From a bacterium (lineage in GTDB: Bacteria; Patescibacteriota; Minisyncoccia; JAHIHE01; DAOWLE01): a stretch of DNA of 26,909 nucleotides. This document shows positions 4,558-26,860 of the stretch, in pieces. Each line of letters opens with the position of its first letter. Within the stretch, counting starts at the first letter, position 1. The notes under the pieces are model-generated. The model saw only the letters and a list, made by a program, of their open reading frames with translations. It searched no databases and was not told the DNA's origin. The position numbers and the translations under genes are program-made. Where the stretch lies: positions 1-26,909 of the forward strand of contig DAOWLE010000025.1 of assembly GCA_030643545.1 (NCBI GenBank), read 5' to 3'.

Positions 4558-4953
4558 CTAAATCGTTTTCAATAATTCATCCATCTTTTTCACAAAAATT
4601 TCTGCTTTTTCAACAGCGTCTTGCGCGTCTTTTTTATTTATTTTAACTTCTTCTCTGTAATCAGCGTCTGTTCTTGCTTCTTGAACTACTGAAAGCATTT
4701 TTGAATAATTTTTATCAACTATTCCAGTTTTTACAAAATATTTCCTCCATAACAAGCCAATTCCTTGATGAGTTTTTGGCTCTTCTTTTTTAAAAATCAA
4801 AACCGCTTTTGCCGCATAAAACATAGCGTAATAAGCCCTTGAAACAGCGTCGCGATATTTTCCGGCTTTAAATAAAATTTGGGCAGATTCTAATTTATCT
4901 TTTGCCAATTTAATTCTCAATTTAGCAAATTCTTTTTTCTTTTTTGGTTCCAT
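4558..4953 (-). CDS. hepT: HEPN domain protein (putative toxin of HEPN/MNT pair)
   Basis: 131-aa all-helical ORF. Its start overlaps the end of the upstream nucleotidyltransferase gene by 37 nt. Family assignment rests on size, the YYAMFYAAKA helix and this genetic coupling. Confidence 0.6.
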   Translation of the reverse strand: MEPKKKKEFAKLRIKLAKDKLESAQILFKAGKYRDAVSRAYYAMFYAAKAVLIFKKEEPKTHQGIGLLWRKYFVKTGIVDKNYSKMLSVVQEARTDADYREEVKINKKDAQDAVEKAEIFVKKMDELLKTI

Positions 4954-5270
4954 AATTCTATTGCGTCTTTTTTAACATTTTCTAAAAAAGGAGTCCATTT
5001 ATTAAATTCTTTCTTTGGCAAAATCCGTGGAGAAATTTCCACCTCGTATTCAAGCATCGGATCAGTAGCCATTTCAATCATTTTTTTCCATTTTTCTCGG
5101 TTCGCTTTCTTGTTTGTAATTAATAAAATATCAAGGTCTGAATATTTATGATAATTTCCTCTTGCTTTAGAGCCAAAAAGCATCATCCTTTCTATAAGAG
5201 TCGGATAATTTTTTCTCAAATTATTTTTATAATCAGTTAAGGCTTTTTTTTCTTTGATATTAAGAGACAT
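4917..5270 (-). CDS. mntA: minimal nucleotidyltransferase (MNT, putative antitoxin)
   Basis: 117 aa with the GSKARGNYHKYSDLDILLI motif (GS...DxD, the pol-beta-like nucleotidyltransferase signature). Located upstream of and overlapping the HEPN gene. Confidence 0.75.
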   Translation of the reverse strand: MSLNIKEKKALTDYKNNLRKNYPTLIERMMLFGSKARGNYHKYSDLDILLITNKKANREKWKKMIEMATDPMLEYEVEISPRILPKKEFNKWTPFLENVKKDAIELWNQKRKKNLLN

Positions 5271-6120: not shown

Positions 6121-7035
6121 TCACAGCCATTTTTTATTTTTAAAATAAACTATCATAAAAATAAAAGTAATAATCATTATCAGAATCGCCCACCAGAAAT
6201 CGCAGAAACTTTTTATAAAAGGCATACTATGCATTAAATTCATTCCGAAAATACTGGCAATTAAAGTCAAGGGCAGCATAATCACCGAAAAAATCGTCAG
6301 AACTTTTAAGGTTTCATTAAATTTGTAATAAAACAGCGATTCGTTTGTTTTTTCAATCGCTTCAATCATTTCCTTGTGATTTTCCAAAGTATTCCAAACG
6401 CGGATATTTGATCCGATTACTTCCTGCGAATATATTTTTAAATCCACCTGACAGAATTTAGAAATAATTTTATCAAGAATTTCCAGAACCATTCTTTGCG
6501 GCTTGATTGTCTTGCGAAAATCAATTATATCTTTTTTAACAATGGAAATTTCGCTGATCATCTCTCGTTCGTTTCCCTGAAAAACCTCGTGTTCTATTTG
6601 ATCAATATTTTCGGCAATGTGGTCCAACATTGGTAAACGGGAGTCAATCATTTTGTCCAAAATTTGAAAAAGGAGAAAACCTGTTCCTTTTTCCAAATAC
6701 CGCTCTCTTAACTGATCATGAATATTACAATCGTCAAAAAATTTCCTCAATTGGGGAAGTTTTCCTGAATGGCTGGTGATAATCGTATCTTTAGTTAAAA
6801 GAATATCTAATTCAGTTGAAAAAGTTTCACGGGTTTCTTTTTCAAAAACCGGAAAATGCAAAACGATAAAAAGATAATCAGGATATTCGTCAACTTTCGG
6901 TCGCTTTAACGGCGGAAGATATTCCTTCAAAACAACCGGGGAAAAATTAAAATTTTTCCGCAAATATTCAATATCCAAATCCGTCGGCTTATTAATATCA
7001 ATCCATTTAACTTGTTTAGTTTTAATTGTTTTCAT
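6121..7035 (-). CDS. corA: CorA-family magnesium/cobalt transporter
   Basis: 304 aa. The C-terminal two TM helices carry the signature GMN motif (IFGMNLMHSMPF) and are followed by a basic tail. This is CorA architecture. Confidence 0.85.
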   Translation of the reverse strand: MKTIKTKQVKWIDINKPTDLDIEYLRKNFNFSPVVLKEYLPPLKRPKVDEYPDYLFIVLHFPVFEKETRETFSTELDILLTKDTIITSHSGKLPQLRKFFDDCNIHDQLRERYLEKGTGFLLFQILDKMIDSRLPMLDHIAENIDQIEHEVFQGNEREMISEISIVKKDIIDFRKTIKPQRMVLEILDKIISKFCQVDLKIYSQEVIGSNIRVWNTLENHKEMIEAIEKTNESLFYYKFNETLKVLTIFSVIMLPLTLIASIFGMNLMHSMPFIKSFCDFWWAILIMIITFIFMIVYFKNKKWL

Positions 7036-7041
7036 AAAACT

Positions 7042-7071
7042 GATTTACGATTTAAGATTTACGATTTAAGA
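7042..7071. repeat. gatttaYgatttaaga tandem repeat immediately upstream of the corA start
   Basis: gatttacgatttaagatttacgatttaaga lies 6 nt upstream of the corA ATG. Related copies occur at 11401-11439, 11823-11845 and 22273-22290. Confidence 0.7.
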
Positions 7072-7122
7072 ATAATTTATAACGCAATGTTTCTATTTAA
7101 ATTATACAGTAAAATTTAACCC

Positions 7123-8760: not shown

Positions 8761-9696
8761 ATGGTTGCAATAGAAACATTAGCGTGGTTATCAGTAATTA
8801 TTGCGCTAATGTTAATATCTTCTTTTTCTTTGATAATCTATATGGTTCTTTTCAGAAAAAAACAACCAACTCCCCAACAACCAATTCCAGATGAAGAATC
8901 CGACCAACCCGAAGCCCAACAACCCGAACAGCAATCTGAAACAGCAACACCCAGAAAACTTCCAATTGGAAAAGTAATCGCCACGATTCTTGTGATAGCG
9001 ATAATAGCAATACCACTCGGGATATTTTTTTCTCTTCCCGGAGATACTAGCGATAAAATCGAAAAAGGGAAAGATACAATTGCAAAGATTACAGGAAAAC
9101 AAGAAATTCCAGATATTCCAGTAGAATGCGTTGATTATCTCTACGATTTCAGCAACCAGTCGCAAATGAACAAAGTGAAAACAAGCGATTATACAGAAAT
9201 ATCAGTAAAAAACGAAAAATTAATAGTAAGAGCAGAAAATAAAGACGAAACTGCAACGATATATCTTGCGCTTGACAATAAATTCCAAAAGCGAAAAGCA
9301 ATAAAAATACAAGCAATAGCAAGAATTAATGGATTAAACAACGCAAAATGCGGTCTCGGATCTGTTATTAAAGACAGTATTCTACGAAGAACAGTTTTTA
9401 ATGGAAAAGAAATAGATTTTTTTCCAGACGGAGAAAATTTTAATTTTCCAGATAATCGCGCTGAAAACGGAGAATACGAAATTGCTTTCGCAAGAATAAT
9501 CAGCAACGATAATAAAACAGCAAAACTTAGAGCTCTGGTTAATCCATCATTCGGCGAAAAATACGAAGAAATATCATCGCCATACGATTTATTTTTAGAA
9601 AAAAATCTAAGCAATATAGGAATAGATTTTTACAGCGATAACAGAGAAAGCCAGTTAGAAATTTCAGAAATAAGAATTTACGCCAGTGAGAATTAA
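8761..9696 (+). CDS. hypothetical 2-TM membrane protein, translationally coupled partner of the SPFH protein
   Basis: 311 aa. Its ATG lies 4 nt after the SPFH stop and is preceded by AGGAGG. It has two TM helices separated by a Pro/Gln/Glu-rich linker, then a ~200-aa extracytoplasmic domain. No clear NfeD OB-fold motifs were recognised. Confidence 0.6.
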   Translation: MVAIETLAWLSVIIALMLISSFSLIIYMVLFRKKQPTPQQPIPDEESDQPEAQQPEQQSETATPRKLPIGKVIATILVIAIIAIPLGIFFSLPGDTSDKIEKGKDTIAKITGKQEIPDIPVECVDYLYDFSNQSQMNKVKTSDYTEISVKNEKLIVRAENKDETATIYLALDNKFQKRKAIKIQAIARINGLNNAKCGLGSVIKDSILRRTVFNGKEIDFFPDGENFNFPDNRAENGEYEIAFARIISNDNKTAKLRALVNPSFGEKYEEISSPYDLFLEKNLSNIGIDFYSDNRESQLEISEIRIYASEN

Positions 9697-9825
9697 CGAA
9701 AATAAACCACCTAAAAATTCAACAAAGTTTAGCAGGAAATTGGTTGATCAACAAATCAATACCGCCTGCTATTTTTTTTATTTGGAAAACACAAATCCCC
9801 CTAACCCCCTTTAAAAAGGGGGAAC

Positions 9826-9880
9826 AGATTCCGAAACAAGTTCGGAATGACAGAAGAAAATTCGGAATGACAAATTAAAC
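9826..9880. repeat. palindromic GGAATGACAGAAGAA-type element, intergenic copy
   Basis: gattccgaaacaagttcggaatgacagaagaaaattcggaatgaca has palindromic arms attccgaa/ttcggaat and a duplicated ggaatgaca(gaagaa) unit. A near-identical architecture lies at 13635-13740 inside pilD. Confidence 0.7.
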
Positions 9881-9888
9881 CAAAAACA

Positions 9889-9931
9889 AAACAGATACCT
9901 AAAAAATCTCCCTTAAAGGCATCTGTTTTTA
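9889..9931. terminator. bidirectional rho-independent terminator candidate between convergent operons
   Basis: Hairpin acagatacc...ggcatctgt is flanked by an A-run upstream and a T-run downstream. It is positioned after the plus-strand SPFH operon and after the minus-strand gene ending at 9953. Additional hairpins at 9731-9770 (agcagg...cctgct followed by T8) and 9808-9826 (ccccc...ggggg) lie in the same zone. Confidence 0.5.
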
Positions 9932-9952
9932 TTTTTTAAATATTTTATTTTA

Positions 9953-10517: not shown

Positions 10518-11393
10518 TTATCCCGCGAGAATATCAACCAATGTATTCACAATCGCGTACGCCAGGACAACAACTAAAAGTCCTAAAATAGCGTAAGTCA
10601 ACGCTTTTTTTGCTGTATCAGCTTTCTGCTGATCCCCGGCGGAAATCATATACATTGCCCCGCTTATAATAATCATTAAAATCGCGATTAAAATTACAAT
10701 TTTTAAAAGCCACTTAATTAAATCCTCAAGAATTTCAGAAAGCGGTTTGCTCGAAAGATTTACTGTTGAACCGCTGCTTGTTGATGCCGGTTCTTGAACA
10801 GTTATTCCGCCATTGCCTGTTGGAAGTTGTGAGGTTGTAGGAGTTGTGGGAATTGTGGGAGTTGTGGGAATTGCATTTGCGTTTGTTGGAAGCTGTGGAA
10901 CAGTTGAAGCTATTTGACAAGTTCCTTCGTAGCAACAAACACCACTAGTACAATGCCTTGGACCGCTTGGTACAACACTAACACCCCCCGTACATTCACT
11001 TATATCAATGCATTCTTGACCACCTACAGATTCGCAATCAGTTAGAGGAGGAGTTGAAGACGTTTTACATTTTCCATTAATGCAACCGTTCGGACAATCA
11101 TCCACTTTAAAAAGAGATTGATTACAATCACAAGTCATCCCCCCCCATCCTTTTTTACAACCAAATCTAACTGATTTTTGATTATTTTCAACGCAAAAAG
11201 CATAATCGTAATTGTTTTCGTCGTCGCAATCATCACGGCTACCAGCGCACCAATCATTAGCTGTCATTCCATCATAAGTAATATTATTATCACTACAACG
11301 ATAATCTTTAGCAGAAACTTTCTCTCCCACTCCCAAAATTCCCAAACAACTCACCATTAAAATTAAAGTAAATAATAAAATTTTTTTGTTCAT
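10518..11393 (-). CDS. secreted Cys-rich protein with Pro/Thr linker and TrbC/VirB2-like C-terminal double-TM domain (P2)
   Basis: 291 aa with a Sec signal peptide (cleavage near VSA-KD). The ~140-aa domain has about 20 Cys (KDYRCSDNNITYDG...GCKKGWGGMTCDC...). A PT-rich linker (IPTTPTIPTTPTT) follows. The C-terminus carries GAMYMISAGDQQKADTAKKALTYAILGLLVVVLAYAIV. The N-terminal domain is paralogous to 11848..13083. Confidence 0.65.
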   Translation of the reverse strand: MNKKILLFTLILMVSCLGILGVGEKVSAKDYRCSDNNITYDGMTANDWCAGSRDDCDDENNYDYAFCVENNQKSVRFGCKKGWGGMTCDCNQSLFKVDDCPNGCINGKCKTSSTPPLTDCESVGGQECIDISECTGGVSVVPSGPRHCTSGVCCYEGTCQIASTVPQLPTNANAIPTTPTIPTTPTTSQLPTGNGGITVQEPASTSSGSTVNLSSKPLSEILEDLIKWLLKIVILIAILMIIISGAMYMISAGDQQKADTAKKALTYAILGLLVVVLAYAIVNTLVDILAG

Positions 11394-11400
11394 AAAACAA

Positions 11401-11439
11401 TGATTTATGATTTAAGATTTATGATTTACGAATGATTTA
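11401..11439. repeat. gatttaYgattta repeat between the P2 start and the 3' end of the four-helix-bundle gene
   Basis: tgatttatgatttaagatttatgatttacgaatgattta lies 7 nt upstream of the P2 ATG and overlaps the last codons (FVNHKS*) of the four-helix-bundle gene. An inverted copy lies at 11823-11845 on the other side of that gene. Confidence 0.7.
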
Positions 11440-11798
11440 GTTTTTTGAATTAATCCTTGTAAAAGTTGATGAGCTGAATTTATTTGATCTACTAATTTAT
11501 TAAAATTTTCTTCGTTAAGATAATTGACATCTTTAGCGATCAAAATTTGGTTTTTTAATTCAATCAAAGAACCTTGCGCAATATAATAAAACTGGACTTT
11601 TTCTTTATAAGTTTGTCTTCCAAATCCTTCAGCAATATTCGATGTGATAGAGACAACTGCTCTTCGCATTTGACTGACTAATCCGAATATTTCTTCTTTC
11701 GGAAATTCCTTTGTGATTTTATAAACTAAAATTACTATTTGATGTCCTTCTTGCCATGTTTTTAAATCTGTAAATGATTTTATTTTTTGATTATTCAT
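11412..11798 (-). CDS. four-helix-bundle protein (23S rRNA intervening-sequence protein family)
   Basis: 128 aa with DLKTWQEGHQIVILVYKITKEFPKEE...SQMRRAVVSITSNIAEGFGR..YKEKVQFYYIAQGSLIEL. These are the characteristic helices and the WQ..h/NIAEG motifs of the TIGR02436 / 23S_rRNA_IVP family. Confidence 0.75.
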   Translation of the reverse strand: MNNQKIKSFTDLKTWQEGHQIVILVYKITKEFPKEEIFGLVSQMRRAVVSITSNIAEGFGRQTYKEKVQFYYIAQGSLIELKNQILIAKDVNYLNEENFNKLVDQINSAHQLLQGLIQKTKSFVNHKS

Positions 11799-11847: not shown

Positions 11848-13083
11848 CTATTGAACTCCCAAAATATCTTTTAACTCCGTAATAATTGACCAAGATAAAA
11901 TAACAACTCCCAGTCCCACAACAGCGTAAAGAATTATATTTTTCGCTTTTTTAATTCTTTCCTCGTCGCCGGCAGAAGTAATATACATTAATCCGCCGAT
12001 AATTAAAAATAAAATTGCCAAAGAAACCACAATTCCCAAAATCCAATTGATAATTCCCATAATCAGCGCCTCAAAACTATCAGTGCTTAAAGGATTATTA
12101 AACCTAACCGCTCCGCCACTACCACCAGTATTGCTTCCACCCATACCACCTCCATTATTAACCGTTCCTCCGCCGCCCTCGTTACAATCAGAACCAGAAA
12201 CACAACGAATTTTTCCTTTGGATTTTCCATTACATGTTCCTTCGCAACTACTTGGTCCGCATATTTCAGCTTCTTGATTATCACATTCATCATCAGGATT
12301 ACAACCAATATTTATCCAATAACAAGGATTTGGAGTAGTTGTTGAAATAGGATTACATTGCCCTATACAACAAACTCTACTACCAGAACATCCTGATACG
12401 TCTAATTTTTCTTGCGAACATGTATTTTTATTTAAATCACAACAACTTCCTCCTGCGTCAGAACAAGTTTGAGTTTTTGGAACACAACTTTCTGGCTGAC
12501 AACAAGTACCGCTGGAACATTCTCTCGGACCTTCAAATACAACTTTTGAACAATTATTTGTTCTCAAATCACAACATATTTGACCACTTACAGATTCGCA
12601 CTTACAATATTTTTCCTTACAACAAAAACCGCTGGAACATTCTCTCGGACCACTTGCTACAAAACCGCTACAGTCTTTCTCATCACAACATACTTGACCG
12701 CTTACAGATTCGCAAGCAGTCGCCGGAGGAGTTGAAGACATTTTGCATTTTCCATTCACGCAACCGTTCGGACAATCATCCACTTTAATAAAACTACAAT
12801 CACAAGTCATCCCCCCCCATCCTTTTTTACAACCAAATTGAACTGATTTTTGATTATTTTCAACGCAAAAAGCATAATCGTAATTGTTTTCGTCGTCGCA
12901 ATCATCGCCCCAAATGCCTCCTGCGCACAAATCGTTAGCTGTCCTCCCATTATAAGTAATATTATTATTATCACAACGATAATCTTTAGCAAAAATTTCT
13001 CCCCCCACTCCCAAAATTCCGAAACAGCTCGCCATTAAAATTAAAGTAAATAAAAAGTTTTTGTTTTGAAATAAATTTTTCAT
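11848..13083 (-). CDS. secreted Cys-rich protein with duplicated Cys modules, Gly-rich segment and TrbC/VirB2-like C-terminal double-TM domain (P3)
   Basis: 411 aa. A signal peptide is followed by an N-terminal domain near-identical to P2. Nucleotide blocks around 12780-13020 and 11100-11340 are almost identical. Internal repeated modules are CESVSGQ(V/I)CCD...GPRECSSG(F/T)CC. The run GGGGTVNNGGGMGGSNTGGSGG is Gly-rich. The C-terminus carries GGLMYITSAGDEERIKKAKNIILYAVVGLGVVILSWSII. Confidence 0.65.
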   Translation of the reverse strand: MKNLFQNKNFLFTLILMASCFGILGVGGEIFAKDYRCDNNNITYNGRTANDLCAGGIWGDDCDDENNYDYAFCVENNQKSVQFGCKKGWGGMTCDCSFIKVDDCPNGCVNGKCKMSSTPPATACESVSGQVCCDEKDCSGFVASGPRECSSGFCCKEKYCKCESVSGQICCDLRTNNCSKVVFEGPRECSSGTCCQPESCVPKTQTCSDAGGSCCDLNKNTCSQEKLDVSGCSGSRVCCIGQCNPISTTTPNPCYWINIGCNPDDECDNQEAEICGPSSCEGTCNGKSKGKIRCVSGSDCNEGGGGTVNNGGGMGGSNTGGSGGAVRFNNPLSTDSFEALIMGIINWILGIVVSLAILFLIIGGLMYITSAGDEERIKKAKNIILYAVVGLGVVILSWSIITELKDILGVQ

Positions 13084-13123: not shown

Positions 13124-14026
13124 TTAAAAAATCAAACTAAAATAAATATCTTTTATAATTTCTCCCCAGAGCATCATTATAATCGTTGCCGCGACTAAGA
13201 AGGGTCCAAAAGGAATCTGGCTTTTGATAGATTTTATTTTTAAACCGATGAGAATTAAACCGATTGCCGCGCCCAAAATAAAAGCAAGGAATAGAGCAAA
13301 AAGAATATTTGGCCAACCGAGAATAAGTCCCATTAAAAAAGCCAATTTAACATCGCCAAATCCCATCCATTGACCTTTTGATATTAAAATTATTAGAAAG
13401 AAAAATCCAGCGGCGATGATAGCAGAGAAAATAGTATTTAGTATATCGTATATTGTATATTGTATAAAAATACCAGATACTAAATACCAGATACTAAATA
13501 CCAAAATAGCTGGAAAAATTATTTTGTCTGGAATAATGTAATGTTTTAAATCGTATACAAAAATTACTATTAGAGAACAAAGAATGAAAAGCAAAGAACA
13601 AAAAGCAATGAACAATGAACAGAAATTTAAAAGATTGTCATTCCCAACTTGATTGGGAATCCAGGCAGATAAGAAATGATTTGAATACTGGATTCCCGCC
13701 TGCGCGGGAATGACAGAAGAAGCGGGAATGACAGAAGAAAAAAAACCTAAAAAATTAAAAAATAAAACAAACAATATTCCTGTTCCTATTTCCACTAATG
13801 GATACTGAATTGAAATTGGTTTTCCGCAGTATCGGCATTTGCCAAAAGTGGAAATAAAACTTAAAATCGGAATCAAATCAAACCATTTCAAATTTTTTTT
13901 ACAATGCGGACAGCGCGAGCGAGAGAAAAAAAATTCTTCTTTTGTTTTCAAACGGCAGATAACAACATTTAAAAAACTGCCGACAATAAGCCCGAAGATA
14001 AAAATAAAGAAAGAAATAACAAACAT
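13124..14026 (-). CDS. pilD: prepilin peptidase (A24 family) carrying an in-frame repeat-derived insertion
   Basis: 300 aa. The N-terminal Zn-binding tetracysteine motif is CPHCKK...CRYCGK. The LNVVICRL and YPLVE motifs are present. The catalytic region VYDLKHYIIPD is followed by the downstream multi-TM A24 domain (GFGDVKL). About 45 extra residues (SSVIPASSVIPAQAGIQ...) lie between TM2 and the first catalytic Asp. These are encoded by the palindromic repeat at 13635-13740. Confidence 0.8.
   Translation of the reverse strand: MFVISFFIFIFGLIVGSFLNVVICRLKTKEEFFFSRSRCPHCKKNLKWFDLIPILSFISTFGKCRYCGKPISIQYPLVEIGTGILFVLFFNFLGFFSSVIPASSVIPAQAGIQYSNHFLSAWIPNQVGNDNLLNFCSLFIAFCSLLFILCSLIVIFVYDLKHYIIPDKIIFPAILVFSIWYLVSGIFIQYTIYDILNTIFSAIIAAGFFFLIILISKGQWMGFGDVKLAFLMGLILGWPNILFALFLAFILGAAIGLILIGLKIKSIKSQIPFGPFLVAATIIMMLWGEIIKDIYFSLIF
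13635..13740. repeat. palindromic GGAATGACAGAAGAA-type element inserted in-frame inside pilD
   Basis: ttgtcattcccaacttgattgggaatccagg...ctggattcccgcctgcgcgggaatgacagaagaagcgggaatgacagaagaa. Palindromic arms are attccca/tgggaat and ttcccgc/gcgggaa, with a duplicated gggaatgacagaagaa unit. The architecture matches the intergenic copy at 9826-9880. On the coding strand it translates as FFFSSVIPASSVIPAQAGIQ. Confidence 0.7.
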
Positions 14027-16410: not shown

Positions 16411-17489
16411 TGTTTATTTTTCAAAAGCATTTTTAAATCCTTAGGATTAAGTGAGTAAAGCTCCGCATTTTGGCGAGATATCTCGCCTTTTTCAACAAGA
16501 TTTGCTAAAGATTTATTAAGAGGAAGCATTCCTTCTTCGGAACTTGTTTCAATAACCAAATCCAACTGGTGAGTTTTATTTTCCCTGATTAAATTTCTTA
16601 TTGCCGCGTTAGCAAGCAGAATTTCCGTTGCCGGAATTCTTCCACCGTCAACGCGGGGAACAAGCCGCTGAGAAACAATTCCCTGAAGGCTGCTGGCTAA
16701 TTGCGCTCTAATTTGAGATTGTTGATTAGCCGGAAAACTATCAATAATTCTGTCTATTGTCTGAGCGGCATTATTAGTATGAAGAGTGGCAAAAACCAAA
16801 TGACCTGTCTCCGCGGCAGTCACCGCTGTTGATATTGTTTCCGGATCTCTCATTTCTCCAACCATAATCACATTAGCGTCTTCCCTAAAAACAGATCTCA
16901 AAGCAACATGAAAAGAACGGGAATCGTGATAAATTTCCCTTTGAGAAATAATGCATCTGTCTTGAGTAAAAACATATTCAATCGGATCTTCAATAGTAAT
17001 TATACAATCATTTCGGTTATGATTAATTTCATCTATTAAAGCGGCTAAAGATGTTGATTTTCCATGGCCGGTTGGTCCGACCATCAGAACAAAACCTTGT
17101 TTAAGCTTGGTAAATTTGTGAATAATAGGCGGCAAATTTAATTCTTCAACAGTTCTAATTTCCGAAGGAATTAATCTTAAAGAAGCTCCGACATATCCTT
17201 TTTGGCGGAAAATATTAACTCTAAATCTTGCTCTTTCTTCAAAATTATAAGAAAGGTCAATTTCTTTGTCTTTTAAAAACTGGTCTTTTTGTTTTTCATC
17301 AAGCAGAGCAAAGCATAATTCCTCGGCGTGTCCCGGAGTTAAAATTTCTTTGTTTGTTAAAGGAATTAATTTGCCATCAATTCTTAAAATAGGATATCGC
17401 GCTATTGAAATATGAAGATCTGAAGCGCCTTCTTTTGCTGTCATTTCCAAAAGTTCGTTTAATTCTTTTTTAATTTCTAATGAATCCAT
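16407..17489 (-). CDS. pilT: type IV pilus retraction ATPase PilT
   Basis: 360 aa with a Walker A box GPTGHGKST, the Asp box ITIEDPIEY, Walker B MVGEMRD, the His box HLVFATLHTNNA and the PilT-type AIRNLIRE motif. Confidence 0.9.
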   Translation of the reverse strand: MDSLEIKKELNELLEMTAKEGASDLHISIARYPILRIDGKLIPLTNKEILTPGHAEELCFALLDEKQKDQFLKDKEIDLSYNFEERARFRVNIFRQKGYVGASLRLIPSEIRTVEELNLPPIIHKFTKLKQGFVLMVGPTGHGKSTSLAALIDEINHNRNDCIITIEDPIEYVFTQDRCIISQREIYHDSRSFHVALRSVFREDANVIMVGEMRDPETISTAVTAAETGHLVFATLHTNNAAQTIDRIIDSFPANQQSQIRAQLASSLQGIVSQRLVPRVDGGRIPATEILLANAAIRNLIRENKTHQLDLVIETSSEEGMLPLNKSLANLVEKGEISRQNAELYSLNPKDLKMLLKNKQ

Positions 17490-17495
17490 ATAATA

Positions 17496-17612
17496 AATTT
17501 AAATATTAAATATCAAAATGTAAAATGACAATGTAAAATTAAAAATTAAAAATTAAAAATTTTTCAATTTTGATTTGTTATTTTGATTTTTGATTTTTGC
17601 ATTTTAATTTTT
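17496..17612. repeat. imperfect palindromic intergenic element, copy B
   Basis: aaatatcaaaatgtaaaatgacaatgtaaaatt...aattttgatttgttattttgatttttgattttt. Fills the whole spacer between the pilT start and the stop of the upstream small ORF. Confidence 0.7.
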
Positions 17613-17936
17613 TTAGTACGGCAAAAATGGATTTGGTCTTCCAGTTTGGCCCGTTTTTACCGGCAAATCTCCGTGGCTGCGCAGATCTTTGAACTGCGTA
17701 CTTTCTAAAACTTTTAAATCCAATTCCGTGGAAACCAATCCTTCGCTTGGCAAAGACTCGTTCTTTCCATCTAAATAAGGAAAATTTTCATTGTTTGTTT
17801 TAGAAATTGTTTCAGCTGGTTGATTAGATGTTTTCGGCCCTGAAAAATTCCAAATAAGAACTATTGCCATTATTAAAAGGCAAGTTACTAAAATAATCGC
17901 TAAAATTTTTTGTTTTTTTTCTTCTTGAGAAGCCAT
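17613..17936 (-). CDS. small membrane protein (hypothetical), embedded in pilus operon
   Basis: 107 aa with an N-terminal TM (ILAIILVTCLLIMAIVLIW), then a Pro/Ser/Thr-containing soluble tail. It is flanked on both sides by copies of the palindromic element. No homolog recognised. Confidence 0.5.
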   Translation of the reverse strand: MASQEEKKQKILAIILVTCLLIMAIVLIWNFSGPKTSNQPAETISKTNNENFPYLDGKNESLPSEGLVSTELDLKVLESTQFKDLRSHGDLPVKTGQTGRPNPFLPY

Positions 17937-17939
17937 AAT

Positions 17940-18140
17940 ACAAATTTAAAATTTAAATATCAAAATGTAAAATGACAGTGTAAAATTCAAAATTGACTAA
18001 TGTTAAAATGGTTTTTAAGTTTACCCTGTTAAATAAAATCTTTGATTTTCTTTCACCAAAGGCGAAAGACTTAACAGGGTAAATTCCATTTTAACATTTT
18101 GATTTGTCATTTTGCATTTTGATATTTGCATTTTGATTTT
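17940..18140. repeat. imperfect palindromic intergenic element, copy C, with nested hairpin insertion
   Basis: Same outer cores as copies A, B and D, plus the ttgactaatgttaaaatggttttt block shared exactly with copy A. It contains the nested perfect palindromes tgttaaaatgg/ccattttaaca (18001-18011 with 18086-18096) and tttaccctgttaa/ttaacagggtaaa (18020-18032 with 18071-18083). Confidence 0.7.
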
Positions 18141-18141
18141 T

Positions 18142-19884
18142 CTAGTCTTTCGTCGCTTTAATCACTTCATTGATTGTCGTCGTTCCTTTCAAAACTTTTA
18201 ATACTCCATCTTGAAGCATTGACAGCATTTTCTGCCGCCGCGCTTCTTCTTTAATCGCGCTTTCAGTTAAATTTTCAATAACAACTTTTTCCAAACCAGG
18301 AGTCATCGAAAAAACTTCAAAAATAGCCATTCTGCCTTTCACTCCTTGGTTATCGCAATACTTGCATCCTTTGCCCTGATAAATTTTATAGGGCTCTTTT
18401 ATTGACAAACTGTCCTTTTGTTCTTGAGAAAGTTTATTTACTTCCCGTTCAATTAAATTTTTTACGCCCCTGTCCAGTTCAATTTCCTTGCGGCAGTACT
18501 TGCAAATTCTTCTAACTAATCTTTGAGCAATAATTAAATTAAGGGAAGAAGTAATTAAGAAAGGATCAATTCCCATGTCAATTAATCGCGGAATAACGCC
18601 AACCGCGTCATTGGTATGAAGAGTTGAAAGAACAATATGCCCGGTCAGCGCGGCATGAACAGCCAACTCAGCTGTTTCTTTATCCCTGATTTCCCCGACC
18701 ATAATAATATCCGGATCCTGCCGTAAAATTGACCTTAAACCAGAAGCGAAAGAATAACCTATTTCCGGCTTTACCTGGCTTTGATTTACTCCTTCAATAT
18801 CATATTCAATCGGATCTTCCAAAGTAATAATATTCACTCCTTCTTGATTAAGAATTGATAAAAGAGCGTAAAGAGTTGTTGATTTCCCAGAACCAGTCGG
18901 ACCGGTTATCAAAATCATTCCGTAAGGTTTTTTAATGCTTTCAATGGTGAGCTTATGGGCATTGCCTTCTAATCCTAATTCATGCAAGCTTCTTAAACCA
19001 ATTGATTTATCAAGAATTCTTAAAGCCGCTTTTTCGCCATTTAAAGTCGGTAGAGTAGAAACCCTAAAATCTAATCCTTTTCCGTCAATATCCATATGAA
19101 ATCTTCCATCTTGCGGCTTTCGGCTTTCGTCAATTTTGAGATTAGTAAGAATTTTTATTCGCGATATGACGCCTGAACAAACTTGCTTGGGCAAAGTTAA
19201 ACTTGAATGAAGCACTCCGTCAATCCTAAAACGAACTCTTAAATCAGTTTCTGTCGGTTCAATATGAATATCGCTTGCTCCGCCTTCATAAGCATGCCTT
19301 ATAATAATGTCAACTATTTTGCTTACCGGCGTTTTCTCAACTAATCGTTCAACTTTTTCCACCTTTTCTTTTTTTGAAACTGGTTTTTTGCTTTTTAAAT
19401 CTTTTTTTATTCCTTTCAGCGCTTCGCTGACTTCTAAATCCAAAACTCTGTATTGCCTTAATGTTTCTTCAAAAGAAGAAGATGAAGTGATAAAAATTCT
19501 TGTTTTAAGATTATGCCTTAAAGCAATAAATTTAAGAGCTTCTAATGATCTTATGTCTTTTGGATCAAGCATAGCAATATCTATTTGTTTGCCATGTTTA
19601 AAAAAAGGAACAAAACGATAATGCACAGCGGCCTCTTCAGGAATTTCTTTTAAAACATTGGAGGGAATTTTTTCTCCTCTTAAATCAACATAAGGTATTT
19701 TTAAAAATTCTGCTTTTGTCTGGATATAATCTTCTTCTTCAATAATTTTATTTCTAAAAACAAACTCATCAAGCGTTTGTCCGGCTTCGTTTGCTTTTTG
19801 TTTATATGATTCAATTTTTTGAGATTCAATTAAACCTTTTTCTAAAAGAAGATCAATAATTTGTTTGGACTTTTGAACAACCAT
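18142..19884 (-). CDS. pilB: type IV pilus assembly ATPase PilB (GspE family)
   Basis: 580 aa with an N-terminal GSPII_E_N-like domain. Has Walker A GPTGSGKSTT, the Asp box ITLEDPIEY, Walker B MVGEIRD, the His box HIVLSTLHTNDA and the tetracysteine Zn motif CKYC...CKYC. Confidence 0.9.
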   Translation of the reverse strand: MVVQKSKQIIDLLLEKGLIESQKIESYKQKANEAGQTLDEFVFRNKIIEEEDYIQTKAEFLKIPYVDLRGEKIPSNVLKEIPEEAAVHYRFVPFFKHGKQIDIAMLDPKDIRSLEALKFIALRHNLKTRIFITSSSSFEETLRQYRVLDLEVSEALKGIKKDLKSKKPVSKKEKVEKVERLVEKTPVSKIVDIIIRHAYEGGASDIHIEPTETDLRVRFRIDGVLHSSLTLPKQVCSGVISRIKILTNLKIDESRKPQDGRFHMDIDGKGLDFRVSTLPTLNGEKAALRILDKSIGLRSLHELGLEGNAHKLTIESIKKPYGMILITGPTGSGKSTTLYALLSILNQEGVNIITLEDPIEYDIEGVNQSQVKPEIGYSFASGLRSILRQDPDIIMVGEIRDKETAELAVHAALTGHIVLSTLHTNDAVGVIPRLIDMGIDPFLITSSLNLIIAQRLVRRICKYCRKEIELDRGVKNLIEREVNKLSQEQKDSLSIKEPYKIYQGKGCKYCDNQGVKGRMAIFEVFSMTPGLEKVVIENLTESAIKEEARRQKMLSMLQDGVLKVLKGTTTINEVIKATKD

Positions 19885-21078: not shown

Positions 21079-21081
21079 GAT

Positions 21082-21186
21082 AGTAAATTTAAAAATTAAA
21101 TATCAAAATGTAAAATGACAATGTAAAATTTAAAATTTTTTAATTTTGATTTGTCATTTTGATTTTTGATTTTTAATCTTTGATTT
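21082..21186. repeat. imperfect palindromic intergenic element, copy D
   Basis: aaatatcaaaatgtaaaatgacaatgtaaaattt...aattttgatttgtcattttgatttttgattttt. Fills the pilM-pilN spacer. Confidence 0.7.
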
Positions 21187-22269
21187 TTATACTGTTCCTC
21201 TTGTTGCCGAGCCGACAGATGAAGAAAAAAACGGAGATAATTCTTTTAATGCCGGGTTTAAAATTTCCGGATAAATCACATTAAGCCAAGGATTAGCTAA
21301 AGATACCGGAATATCAAAATTTTCAATAAAATATTCCATTAATCCGGGAAGATTTGCTGAACCGCCGCTCATTATTATCATTTTTGGCTTCTTATTAGAA
21401 CGTTGATAATATAATTCAAAAACTCTTTGTATTTCTTCAATGATTGAATTGATAAGCGGTAACATTAATTCTGAAATTTGTTTTTCAGCATCGTCCGCTT
21501 TTATTCCAATGTCTTTTTTAAGAACTTCAGCTCGTTTAAAATTAAGATTAAGTCCGTCAGCAATTACTTTAGTTAATTCATTGCCGCTCATTTCAATAGT
21601 TCTGCTCATCACCACAAACCCTCCTTCAACAACAATAATATTAGACGAACTTATTCCAATATCAACAATTACCATTGGTTCTTTTTCTTTGCCTACTAAC
21701 GCTCTTGACAAAGAAAAGGATTCTGACTCTAAAGCGACTAATTCAACTTTGGCTATCTCGGCAATCTTGGCATATTTTTGGATTAATTCTTTGGAGACAG
21801 CAACTAAAATTATTTCCAATAAATGTGAATCAGAATTTTCTTTTAATGAAAAACTTCCTGAATCTTTTTTGAGAATTTCCCAGCTTAAAATTACTTCTTC
21901 AATCGGAACAGGAATATATTTTTTCGCCTCAATCGGAATAGCTCTTTCAGCTTCTTCATCGGACATTTTTGGCATTTTTATTAAAACAGAAAAGGTTGAA
22001 GAAGCTGGAGTGGAAATAATCGCTCTTCTGGTCGTTGCTTTGCATTCTTTTAAAACCTTTTTCAAAAGCATTGCTATTGTTTTGTCAGAATAATTTATTT
22101 TTCTATTTTCAACTTCAGTTTCTTGGATAAAATCTTTAACTTTTAAATATCCGTAAGTTTCTAATTTTAATCTTTTACTCTCTTGAGTTAATTGTACCAC
22201 CTTTATGTTTTTTGCGCTAATATCAATTCCTAAACATCTATTCGATTTTTTAAAAAAAGAAAAATTCAT
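21187..22269 (-). CDS. pilM: type IV pilus assembly protein PilM (actin-like ATPase fold)
   Basis: 360 aa with LGIDISAKNIKVVQL and IVDIGISSSNIIVVEGG, the actin/FtsA-like phosphate motifs typical of PilM. It is the first gene of the pilMNO-B set. Confidence 0.85.
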   Translation of the reverse strand: MNFSFFKKSNRCLGIDISAKNIKVVQLTQESKRLKLETYGYLKVKDFIQETEVENRKINYSDKTIAMLLKKVLKECKATTRRAIISTPASSTFSVLIKMPKMSDEEAERAIPIEAKKYIPVPIEEVILSWEILKKDSGSFSLKENSDSHLLEIILVAVSKELIQKYAKIAEIAKVELVALESESFSLSRALVGKEKEPMVIVDIGISSSNIIVVEGGFVVMSRTIEMSGNELTKVIADGLNLNFKRAEVLKKDIGIKADDAEKQISELMLPLINSIIEEIQRVFELYYQRSNKKPKMIIMSGGSANLPGLMEYFIENFDIPVSLANPWLNVIYPEILNPALKELSPFFSSSVGSATRGTV

Positions 22270-22272
22270 ATT

Positions 22273-22290
22273 AAAATGATTTATGATTTA
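22273..22290. repeat. gatttaYgattta repeat immediately upstream of the pilM start
   Basis: aaatgatttatgatttac lies 4 nt upstream of the pilM ATG and overlaps the stop of the giant upstream gene. Confidence 0.6.
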
Positions 22291-25200
22291 CTATTCCTTC
22301 TTCGGTTTTACTTCTTTCCACGCTGGCATTGGTTGAGGACAGAGACATTCTCTTGTTTCTCCGGGGGCAATGCATTCACCGGGACAAAGGGCGTCATCTG
22401 TTCCGTCGCATATTTCACAAAGTCCGCTGGTATTCGGGCATTGGATATTATTATCTCCGCAGACAGTCGGACTGGCAACAGTAATTGAAACTGTGTCAGT
22501 GCTAAATCCTCCGTAAGAATCAGTGACTGTTAAATCAATGTGATAAACTCCGATAGTGTCTGGGGTGAATGCAGGTGTTGAAGAAAAAGGATCGGAAATT
22601 AATGTTCCCATTCCAAATTCATAAAGATTTTCTATTTCATCTTCTGATAAAGCTTTATTGTAAATTCTGACTTCATCTATGGAGCCGGAAAATATTTCTC
22701 CGATTATTAAATTATCTGTGTTTGTGTTTATTGCTTCTGAAAAATTTGTTTGCGCGGATTCTTCTCCATTTATGTATAAAATTTGTTTATCTCTATTATA
22801 AGTTAAAACATAATGATGCCATTCATCTAATTGCGGGACTGGCACAGACGCAGTGAGCCTGTTTCCGTTAAGAAATCCATACACTTGCGTACCATCGCCG
22901 TTTGTTTGCAATGAATACGCTCCCTGTTTTTGCAAAATTATTTGATTGGACGATTCTATTTGTTCACTCCCAGGCGCGCCAGCGCTTGGTTCTGGCGATG
23001 CGTATTTACAAACTATCACATTATCTATGTATGCTTCTCCACCATTGCCTGATGCTCCTGCACTAAAGTATATTGTATTGAGAGTTCCTGAATATGAGCC
23101 GGAATAGGTATTAAAATCATTTGATTTCAATACATCATTGACATAATAATCAAATGTTTTGTTTGTTTGGTCCGCTGTTATTTTTATGTCATACCAACTA
23201 TCTTTTGGCATATCGTAAGCAGAAGGAGTTCCTCCATTAAAAACACGAAGTTCATTTCCATTCCAAGACTTCCAGTCTGCGTGAGCAAGAGTATTTGTTC
23301 CATCAGTAAGGCTGGGAAAGCTATAAATACCCGAAGCTGCAGCTGCTTTCGGTCGAGCTTTCATAGTCATCATAAAATTATCTGAACATCCAATATTATC
23401 AGTATACACTTTCGCTCTTTGGTTAGCATAACCAAGAATATGGAGTGTTTCTGATACAATTTCTACTACTGAACCAGCTTCTTTGTCTGATAAATCCCAT
23501 TTTGATAAATCACCACTAAAATCATCAAAAAATTCAAAGGTATTTGTTCCACTACTCACAGAAGTTGCGCTTGAATTGCCATAGTACATATAAATAGCTG
23601 TTCCCGTAGAAGGAATTGACGGAATTTTGACCCAAATCTGCGTTGAAGCAGTATTGCACCCGCTTTCTAACCAAAAAGGAATTTGCGTTGTTTTATCTGA
23701 ATCCTTAATTCTAATATCTGAACAATCTGCTTTCATTTTCCCTTGAGATATTAATTCCGCTGTATCAATCGTTAAAAGCATTTGATAATCAGATAAATCA
23801 GACGATGAACCAGTGACATTTATTGGCTTATAATAGGGCCACAACGCAGGAGGGGCTACTGATTCCACTCTTGCCCATGCTTCTATGCTAATATTATCCT
23901 GGATATCCAATGAATTTGAATCAGAAATCTCAATATAATCGTCTACCCCATCAAAACTTAAAGCGTTTCCAACTTTGCCGGTTGTCCAAATTGGCGAAGC
24001 AGGTTTTAAAGTTCCGTCGTTATTATTTGCTCCAGAAGTATCATAAACAACATTTCCTAAATTCTCGTCAAAATGCCATCGACTAATCAGATTAGAAGGA
24101 GTATAATCCCAGCGATAACTAATCGTATCTCCCTCATCATGACTTCCGCTGCCGTCAAGATTGACTGAATTTCCGATAACAACAAACCGATCTAATCCAG
24201 CGTCAGCAACAGGCAATTGATTCCAAGTGGTTGCTGAAATAGAATTACTCCAATCAGAATCATAGCCATTTTTGGTTGCCATAACTTTATAAGAATAAGT
24301 TGTATTTGCGTTTAATCCGCTTCCAGATAAATCTTCTGTACTAGTTCCTGCGCCTTCCTCAAACGGAAGGTGTAACTCTAAACCAGTATCATTGCTGAAT
24401 GTGTGATTGTAGTGCTCTGCGACTTCCGTACCAGAAAGCGCGCGGTTGTATATCCGGACTTCGTCTATTTTGCCGTCAAAATCACCGTCTTGATTTACTT
24501 TTAAATTACTGCCCGAGGTTTCAATTTCATAAGAAGCTAGTTCTGAAAGGGTTTTGGTCTTCTTCAATGCCCCATTTATATACATCTTTAATTGTTTTGT
24601 TGAAGAACTATATGTTGCTAAAAGATGAGTCCATTCTGTCCCTACTGGATCTCCCCCCCAATCAGCAACCGCATGCCAATCTCCGCCAACACGCAGATAA
24701 AAATGCGCTTCATCTGCCCATGACCGAGATACATCTAAGAAGAAAGCATTTTCTTTGCGAATTATCATCTTCTGGTTATCCGCTCCCGAAGAATCTCTTT
24801 TTACCCACGCTTCAACGGTGATTTCGTCAGTGATGTTCAAACTTGCATCATTCCCGCAGTCAACATAATCATCCACTCCGTCAAATTGCAAAGCATTTCC
24901 AATTTTGCCGGTTGTCCAAACTGCATCATTATGAATAATTCCATTGTTATGATTTCCTCCTCTGTCAATTAAACCTGTATCAGGGCCGTGATAAATCCAA
25001 TCGTCTTTATCAAAACTCCAAAGATGATAAGTATCTGCCCCCCTATCAGACCAGGAAAGATTAATTGTAGAACTTGAACTAGCATTTCCATTTAACGCTG
25101 GAGCGCGAGGAATGATTTCCCAGTTTAAATCAAACCACCGTCCGCCGCAGCTGCCCCAGGCGTCATCACCGCAAGCGTCAACTGCTTTAAATTTTATTGT

Positions 25201-26802: not shown

Positions 26803-26805
26803 TAT

Positions 26806-26860
26806 TTATTGTTCTTTGTTCATTGTTTTCTGTTCTTTGTTCATTGCCTATTCTTCTCAT
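26806..26860. repeat. tandem direct repeats (cattgttttctgttctttgtt x2) in the upstream region of the giant gene
   Basis: ttattgttctttgttcattgttttctgttctttgttcattg. A related motif (aacaatgaacagaaa / caaagaacaaaaagcaatgaac) occurs at 13590-13626 inside the pilD insertion zone. Confidence 0.6.

Follow-up and report, generated by a model that had tools for sequence, protein, structure and literature searches.

A dRS3/NTS-type repeat doublet as a probable tolerated insertion in the prepilin peptidase gene of a Patescibacteria bacterium

The 26,909-nucleotide (nt) stretch of DNA analyzed here (contig DAOWLE010000025.1, hereafter the window) comes from a Parcubacteria-like member of the Patescibacteria and contains a pilD gene whose prepilin peptidase product is lengthened by an in-frame block of 105 nt, or 35 codons, at positions 13635-13739, encoding the peptide SSVIPASSVIPAQAGIQYSNHFLSAWIPNQVGND. 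Judged by published sequence patterns, this block is a member of a known and recently characterized repeat family (dRS3/NTS/SRM) rather than a new kind of element, and it is probably a tolerated selfish insertion of a doublet of that family, analogous to the palindromic elements of Rickettsia. A first-pass annotation of the window had described two short palindromes and a duplicated unit in frame within pilD, and we find exactly this arrangement on the coding strand at 13635-13739. It had put the addition at about 45 residues; the repeat itself supplies 35.

The Neisseria Transformation Sequence (NTS) is defined as the 28-nt CGTCATTCCCGCGMAVGCGGGAATCYRG and includes the long-known dRS3 repeat ATTCCC-N8-GGGAAT (Chenal et al, Nat Commun 2025; PMC11893778). 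The NTS is bound in single-stranded form by SsnA, a small GIY-YIG nuclease that makes its cut 3 nt upstream of the sequence, and SsnA-NTS lowers the transformation of N. meningitidis by NTS-bearing DNA (PMC11893778). NTS copies cluster around surface-protein genes, with only 2% of those in N. meningitidis lying inside genes, and NTS-like “Ssn-related motifs” (SRM) flank ssn genes in many bacteria (PMC11893778). We applied the published family patterns to the window: the dRS3 core, the NTS with at most one mismatch (the authors’ tolerance), and the SRM pattern HGTCWYN(0-2)YYVSBRHN(0-5)WNVSBRGN(0-2)RNCYNB (PMC11893778). The dRS3 core is present as ATTCCCGCCTGCGCGGGAAT at 13692-13711, and positions 13688-13715 on the minus strand agree with the NTS consensus at 27 of 28 positions, the sole mismatch being at position 1 (C to T). 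These same 28 nt are the one exact match to the SRM pattern in the window, where 100 dinucleotide shuffles gave a mean of 0.03 matches. By these patterns, the repeat that the first-pass annotation had left unnamed as “GGAATGACAGAAGAA-type” falls within the dRS3/NTS/SRM family, and the pilD coding strand now bears a near-consensus NTS.

Other parts of the window fit the family less strictly. The partner hairpin at 13635-13664 (core 13640-13660, with an interval of nine nt, N9) misses the strict dRS3, NTS and SRM patterns, as does an intergenic copy at 9826-9880, which misses the strict published patterns, SRM included. The insert matches no Rfam family beyond chance level at E-values up to 10, and across the whole window only two tRNAs score above the Rfam gathering scores. 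A full-text literature search with the translated peptides (VIPAKAGIQ and similar) returned no papers; searches with the DNA strings led to PMC11893778. The pilD element shares with the Neisseria NTS/dRS3 repeats its 27/28 sequence match, a hairpin unit with an oriented 5' flank, an occurrence in inverted pairs, and a wide spread across phyla. It differs in its host, since Patescibacteria go unmentioned in PMC11893778, in being intragenic and in frame, and in having as its partner hairpin a variant with a 9-nt interval that lies outside the published patterns.

The features of the element, its host gene and its intergenic relative are as follows:

13124-14026, minus strand: pilD, prepilin peptidase / N-methyltransferase, 300 residues (from the open reading frame (ORF), Pfam matches, invariant alignment columns and an AlphaFold2 model)
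13635-13739, minus strand: whole insert, NTS doublet plus terminal 18-nt duplication (absent in the closest orthologs; low predicted local distance difference test (pLDDT) score)
13704-13739, minus strand: perfect tandem duplication of 2 x 18 nt (TTCTTCTGTCATTCCCGC), comprising the 5' flank and outer half of the NTS hairpin
13688-13715, minus strand: near-canonical NTS unit TGTCATTCCCGCGCAGGCGGGAATCCAG (NTS pattern with one mismatch, SRM pattern exact)
13665-13687, no strand assigned: AT-rich variable spacer of 23 nt between the two hairpins
13635-13664, plus strand: inverted partner hairpin, a variant reading TTGTCATTCCCAACTTGATTGGGAATCCAG on the plus strand, with an 8-bp stem and a 5-nt loop
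9826-9880, plus strand: intergenic relative with one hairpin, a variant that the SRM pattern does not match

Read along the coding strand from 13739 to 13635, the block comprises two 18-nt units, the rest of hairpin 1, CCAG, the spacer, and an inverted hairpin 2. The two units are identical (ttcttctgtcattcccgc, at 13739-13722 and 13721-13704). Hairpin 1 reads ATTCCCGC-gcag-GCGGGAAT within 13715-13688 and has an 8-bp stem; hairpin 2 reads ATTCCCAA-tcaag-TTGGGAAT followed by GACAA at 13664-13635, its arms also being written CTGGATTCCCAA-TCAAG-TTGGGAATGACAA. The termini of the insert, GTCATTCCC...GGGAATGAC, are inverted repeats, and the pilD frame runs through them unbroken; the insert is thus a small element with terminal inverted repeats inside a functional ORF whose frame is kept, as in Rickettsia palindromic elements or miniature inverted-repeat transposable elements. 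The block folds more stably than shuffled versions of itself (z = -3.9 as DNA and -4.7 as RNA), and its GC content is 0.457, compared with 0.297 in the remainder of pilD. The string GGAATGACA occurs six times in the window against 0.21 expected, a count reached in none of 100 shuffles. Five of the six reading frames of the NTS hairpin unit lack stop codons. In the pilD copy, two of the three sense frames are open and all the antisense frames are closed, because of stops in the spacer together with the one closed frame of the NTS unit.

Two element loci lie within the window, pilD and the intergenic segment at 9826-9880. On the plus strand, the latter comprises the hairpin ATTCCGAA-acaag-TTCGGAAT, then GACAGAAGAA, then a repeated half-site ATTCGGAATGACAA, and its GACAGAAGAA flank is the same as that of the pilD element. 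The resemblance between the two loci that had been reported at first pass is real, with one hairpin and a half-site repeat at the intergenic site, and the interpretation of the pilD block as a repeat-element insertion is supported. A second, different hairpin (CCCCCTTTAAAAAGGGGG, 9797-9822) adjoins the intergenic copy. In a syntenic relative, locus L205, the spacer orthologous to 9700-9950 keeps its flanks and has different hairpins, with CCTCTCCTTCTAAAGGAGAGG and ATTCCCCTCC..GGAGGGGAAT standing between the conserved flanks at 11640-11760. The sequences at this intergenic spot (9797-9880) suggest rapid turnover of hairpin elements.

The pilD block is specific to its lineage. The window’s PilD is itself absent from the protein collection searched, where its best match is 73% identical, and the closest orthologs, at 76-81% identity in our alignment, have no insert. 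Neither does L205, which is syntenic across the window’s gene order from pilM to the TPR gene and shows TTTGGATTT-type low-complexity sequence at the insert site. Ortholog alignment, the check that had been put forward at first pass, thus places the insert outside both the closest orthologs and the syntenic relative. A doublet of the same subfamily does occupy the same PilD loop in another lineage (P0027/P0032), where it is identical across three separate assemblies and includes an identical 26-nt AACTTGATT-loop hairpin. In that pilD it is the antisense strand that carries the canonical NTS, with a spacer unrelated to that of the window. The opposite orientation and unrelated spacer show that the two lineages acquired their insertions independently.

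The loop that received these insertions varies widely. Between the QYP and YDLK motifs, 120 orthologs have 38-84 residues, compared with 88 in the window’s PilD. Elsewhere the loop contains AT-rich tandem repeats (NFQFSIFNEFSIFNF), other GC-rich hairpins (L001, L207 and L225), or GTCAT(T/C)CTGAGCG-type units (L206 and L224). These last units were considered as NTS elements and rejected, as they do not match the SRM pattern. The loop between the second and third transmembrane helices (TM2 and TM3) of PilD is thus a hypervariable sink for hairpin and low-complexity repeats. A homolog search with a 41-residue insert peptide gave one weak match, and a synthetic query joining the loop to the NTS peptide retrieved only truncated PilDs and spurious ORFs. 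The ortholog lists behind the in-gene cases were ranked with the insert-containing query and are biased accordingly; for this reason we considered an enrichment of NTS elements at pilD and do not claim one.

The host gene itself is intact, in agreement with its first-pass assignment as a prepilin peptidase gene. Its 300-residue ORF (13124-14026, minus strand) is uninterrupted and contains both A24 Pfam domains above their cut-offs: A24_N_bact (PF06750) at residues 10-90 with an E-value of 4e-32, and Peptidase_A24 (PF01478) at residues 146-257 with an E-value of 1e-15. SSVIPASSVIPAQAGIQYSNHFLSAWIPNQVGND falls among the 55 residues that separate the two domains. Residues C39, C42, C64, C67, D159 and G222-x-G224-D225 are invariant among 99 ortholog sequences, and the window’s PilD retains every invariant residue, including CxxC-X21-CxxC and G-x-G-D225. 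It therefore has the four-cysteine N-terminal domain and two catalytic aspartates, the second in a GxGD motif, that define peptidase family A24. The gene lies within a complete type IV pilus cluster (pilM/N/O-pilB-pilT-pilC-pilin-pilD), in the order pilM, a 180-residue ORF, pilO, pilB, pilT, pilC, two pilin genes, pilD, and three genes with T4SS_pilin domains; the 180-residue ORF, at the usual position of pilN, matches no family. Domains, zinc motif, catalytic aspartates and pilus cluster are all as in other A24 peptidases, whereas in the TM2-TM3 loop this PilD exceeds most of its orthologs by about 35-50 residues.

We modeled the window’s PilD with AlphaFold2 from 99 sequences, giving a mean pLDDT of 86.9 and a predicted template modeling score of 0.80. 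Over residues 100-130, block-mean pLDDT falls to 52-61, compared with about 90 in the flanking helices, and the insert is modeled with almost no secondary structure between TM2 (helix 74-98) and TM3 (helix 131-162). The CxxC-X21-CxxC motif precedes TM2, and D159 stands at the end of TM3. In published work, the Cys4 domain is cytoplasmic and both catalytic aspartates lie at the cytoplasmic membrane boundary (PMC3584216). Since the Cys4 motif before TM2 and the catalytic aspartate after TM3 are both on the cytoplasmic side, the TM2-TM3 loop between them should face outward, placing the insert on the non-cytoplasmic side of the membrane. The first-pass annotation had assigned the insert to a cytoplasmic loop, which this topology contradicts, and had proposed that it might modulate PilD activity; nothing in our analysis demonstrates such an effect.

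Two further parts of pilD are repetitive or low in complexity. A second hypervariable loop (13433-13501, residues ~176-198, alignment columns 200-225) has WDLRFIWDLGFGIWDF-type repeat peptides in the closest relatives and SIWYLVSGIFIQYTIYDILNT, which is common to distant orthologs, in the window, where the underlying DNA includes a 14-nt tandem repeat. A T-rich segment at 13575-13625 (FCSLFIAFCSLLF, the start of TM3) was considered as part of the element and rejected; we treat it as low-complexity sequence encoding a transmembrane helix. This segment shows a 78% complementary match to an intergenic one at 26792-26842, upstream of the 1503-residue gene. The motif common to both, TTGTTCATTG, is not significantly enriched (8 found and 4.6 expected), and their likeness is probably a low-complexity coincidence.

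We scanned one genome per bacterial species for the doublet pattern GTCATTCCC-N(8-10)-GGGAATCC-N(10-40)-GGATTCCC and obtained at least 119 loci, from Alpha-, Beta-, Gamma- and Deltaproteobacteria, Acidobacteria, Planctomycetes, Nitrospirae, Chloroflexi, Ignavibacteria, Armatimonadota and Patescibacteria. Among the matches listed, at least 95 are complete doublets, 65-89 nt long, whose hairpin units are nearly identical and whose spacers are unrelated from copy to copy. An inverted doublet around a short variable spacer is the usual form of the dRS3/NTS/SRM family. The identical 26-nt partner-hairpin string also occurs in the pilD of L003 and in two Armatimonadota loci (L037 and L062). The doublet pattern is further found in thirteen IMG/VR viral contigs (L211-L223), and phages or prophages may help to spread the element between phyla.

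The duplicated unit reported at first pass is present, though it is better described as a duplication of half a hairpin together with its flank, and it recurs in other bacteria, Neisseria among them. Such a duplication is found in 3 of the 95 listed doublets (L010, L037 and L062), compared with none at a control distance, as well as at 9844-9878 in the window and adjoining the N. gonorrhoeae ssnA homolog (L209). In this last case, positions 1367-1413 comprise an NTS, then GAAGAGTT, then the repeated half-site GCGGGAATGAT, the duplication being written GCGGGAATGAC-gaagagtt-GCGGGAATGAT. We located real ssn loci by tblastn with a GIY-YIG consensus. In both N. gonorrhoeae (L209) and Azospirillum (L210), doublets of this kind flank the ssn homolog, each with a forward unit, a short spacer and a reverse unit.

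Insertion in frame is not confined to pilD. Among the 95 listed doublets, at least four genes have an in-frame doublet with Pfam domains on both sides. The in-frame cases are:

L012, 1562-1643: MurF-type ligase, Massilia, with the insert within the span of the middle-domain model
L032, 5563-5631: GT4 glycosyltransferase, Ignavibacteriaceae, between domains
L036, 2826-2894: TPR-SLT transglycosylase, Nitrospirae, between domains
L078, 7233-7311: tandem ABC ATPase, Burkholderiaceae, between domains
L061, 3115-3184: multi-pass membrane protein, between hydrophobic stretches

These cases invite comparison with two known classes of repeat. REPINs (REP doublets with RAYT Y1 transposases) likewise consist of two inverted hairpin repeats around a short spacer and are dispersed mostly between genes. 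A REPIN family is usually confined to one species and associated with a RAYT gene that its repeats flank, whereas the NTS unit is common to many phyla and its published gene association is with the GIY-YIG nuclease Ssn. Rickettsia palindromic elements (RPEs) are small palindromic mobile repeats found in frame in unrelated functional genes, at fold-compatible sites (PMC10969869). NTS doublets resemble them in inserting in frame into unrelated functional genes and adding a peptide at fold-compatible sites. RPEs are about 150 bp long, are confined to Rickettsia and form their own sequence families, while the NTS-family element is 81-105 nt long and occurs in many phyla. The comparison is one of behavior, and our evidence is that NTS doublets can behave like RPEs in several phyla. 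The element family itself and in-frame palindromic insertion as a phenomenon were already known. What is new here is the host phylum, the in-frame location in PilD with independent insertions in opposite orientations, and the RPE-like behavior of doublets in several phyla.

We therefore favor a model in which a small, non-autonomous mobile dRS3/NTS/SRM doublet has inserted into pilD. Its survival there would follow from three properties: its 105 nt are a multiple of three, its hairpin unit is stop-free in five of six frames, and the TM2-TM3 loop tolerates changes in length and sequence, away from the cytoplasmic active site. The element most likely moves in a single-stranded state through a hairpin-specific enzyme, which could be Ssn, the published associate of NTS repeats, or alternatively a Y1/RAYT-type transposase. 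PilD most likely still works, and the 35 residues it has gained are most likely carried along as a passenger without structure of its own.

Candidate enzymes are found beside pilD in two other Patescibacteria loci. A regular-expression search of the 8-kb loci around the 95 listed doublets found no GIY-YIG ORF, and among all loci the same search found one only in L189. There, at 9150-9560, an Ssn-like GIY-YIG ORF of 80-90 residues (36-42% identity, E = 5e-8 in a local search) precedes a pilin gene and is fused to it in frame, directly beside pilD in a Patescibacteria pilus locus. The ORF is bracketed by TTTATCCAGCACCACTTT copies, with a perfect TTTATCCAGCACCACTTT hairpin after it, an arrangement that suggests a mobile nuclease cassette equipped with a hairpin of its own. 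In L174, an NTS doublet (GTCATTCCCGCGAAAGCGGGAATCTAG ... TGGATCCCCGCCTGCGCGGGGATGAC, 10815-10885) begins 35 nt past the pilD stop codon, and the gene just upstream of pilD, at 9248-9949, encodes a Y1_Tnp (IS200-like) transposase; this transposase gene does not have repeats on both sides.

Several observations weigh against this reading or limit it. A tblastn search of the 27-kb window with the N. gonorrhoeae and Azospirillum Ssn homologs found no Ssn match, and Pfam searches of the main ORFs (all but the 1503-residue ORF at 22291-26802) found no GIY-YIG or RAYT protein. The insert has no clear target-site duplication, the 18-nt duplication including element sequence, and in the nearest relatives the site is not empty but occupied by other sequence; because neither a target-site duplication nor a same-species empty allele was seen, the exact insertion boundaries are approximate. 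The perfect hairpins and perfect 18-nt duplication could reflect a very recent event or selective maintenance, and the near-neutrality of the insert for PilD is our inference. Finally, the 824 kb around 80 more distant Patescibacteria pilD genes contain a single canonical NTS doublet, that of L174, and recurrence in or beside pilD despite such rarity could reflect more than tolerance. This sole doublet and the Ssn-like ORF of L189 together keep alive a functional link to the competence pilus.

We consider it unlikely that the NTS is kept in pilD for a role at the DNA level, in which a cognate Ssn would cut incoming NTS single strands and alter the replacement of the pilus/competence locus by transformation. 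The reported effect of SsnA-NTS on N. meningitidis transformation and the clustering of NTS at surface-protein genes (PMC11893778) make such a role conceivable, and it would accord with NTS-type elements in or beside pilD in at least three Patescibacteria lineages (the window, L003-L005 and L174), with the nuclease-like ORF of L189, and with the perfect stems of the insert. It fits poorly with a 27-kb window that has no ssn gene and with doublets that also occur in unrelated genes such as MurF. The unrelated repeats in the same loop are more simply explained by tolerance, and the apparent enrichment stems from query-biased searches, leaving L174 as an unbiased single case that is not significant alone. 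A broader form of this idea, that NTS-type elements are recruited to, and not merely tolerated at, Patescibacteria type IV pilus/competence genes, with an Ssn-like nuclease controlling replacement of the pilus locus by incoming DNA, we regard as still less probable. If true, it would connect the machinery of DNA uptake with a restriction signal of its own, in organisms dependent on the scavenging of DNA.

The remaining alternatives seem to us very improbable, in decreasing order of likelihood as given here. The inserted peptide might be retained for an effect on PilD itself, with the outward loop influencing stability, partner contacts or substrate access. The preserved reading frame and invariant residues would suit such an effect, as would the similar peptides (VIPxxxG... 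and WIPxxxG...) in the same loop of two lineages; yet the reading frame crosses the element in opposite orientations in those two lineages, whose spacers differ, the insert is modeled at low confidence with almost no secondary structure, loop length and sequence are unconstrained across orthologs, and the catalytic residues lie on the opposite face of the membrane. There is an even slighter chance that a repeat was misjoined into pilD during metagenome assembly. Repeats are a classic cause of misassembly, but the block is exactly 35 codons, open in the gene’s frame, and pilD sequence continues colinearly to either side of it; three independent assemblies of another lineage all show one and the same analogous insertion, and in-frame doublets occur in isolate genomes as well, for example in Massilia sp. 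That the block is ordinary ancient loop sequence, palindromic by chance, is effectively refuted: the loop is indeed variable in all orthologs, but the block agrees with a published 28-nt consensus at 27 positions, where chance would give 0.03 SRM matches, its GC content is 0.457 against 0.297 in the rest of the gene, and the closest relatives lack the sequence.

The pilD doublet extends the NTS/dRS3/Ssn-related family, whose experimental characterization has so far come only from Neisseria and Wolbachia, to Patescibacteria. Doublets of this family can insert in frame, whichever way round, and remain in the loops and linkers of essential proteins (PilD, MurF, glycosyltransferases and ABC ATPases). 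For annotators, this offers an explanation for the recurrent VIPAxAGIQ, WIPAFAGMT and LDSRxRGND peptides in real proteins, and for pilus biology, it indicates that the PilD TM2-TM3 loop accepts 35-50 extra residues. The co-occurrence of these elements with pilus/competence genes is a testable lead on the function of Ssn outside Neisseria.

The window contains other features apart from the pilD element. A typical toxin-antitoxin pair, consisting of a HEPN and a nucleotidyltransferase gene that overlap, is inserted at 4558-5270, with the rpsB/tsf region on one side and a Kre9_KNH-domain gene on the other; it is absent between rpsB and tsf in L205. Two paralogous Cys-rich proteins with T4SS_pilin domains are encoded at 10518-11393 and 11848-13083 and share DNA segments that are 82-98% identical; between them, at 11412-11798, lies a gene for a 23S-rRNA-intervening-sequence protein, a four-helix bundle. 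An AT-rich long palindromic repeat (AAATTTAAA..ATCAAAATGTAAAATGACA..), unrelated to the NTS element, occurs in four intergenic copies (1210-1370, 17483-17615, 17940-18145 and 21080-21205), three of them inside the pilus cluster, with arms that are 72-91% alike. Short tandem GATTTACGATTTAAGATTT-type repeats at 7021-7079, 11381-11439 and 22265-22295 lie just outside the starts of minus-strand genes and may be promoter or 5'-leader elements.

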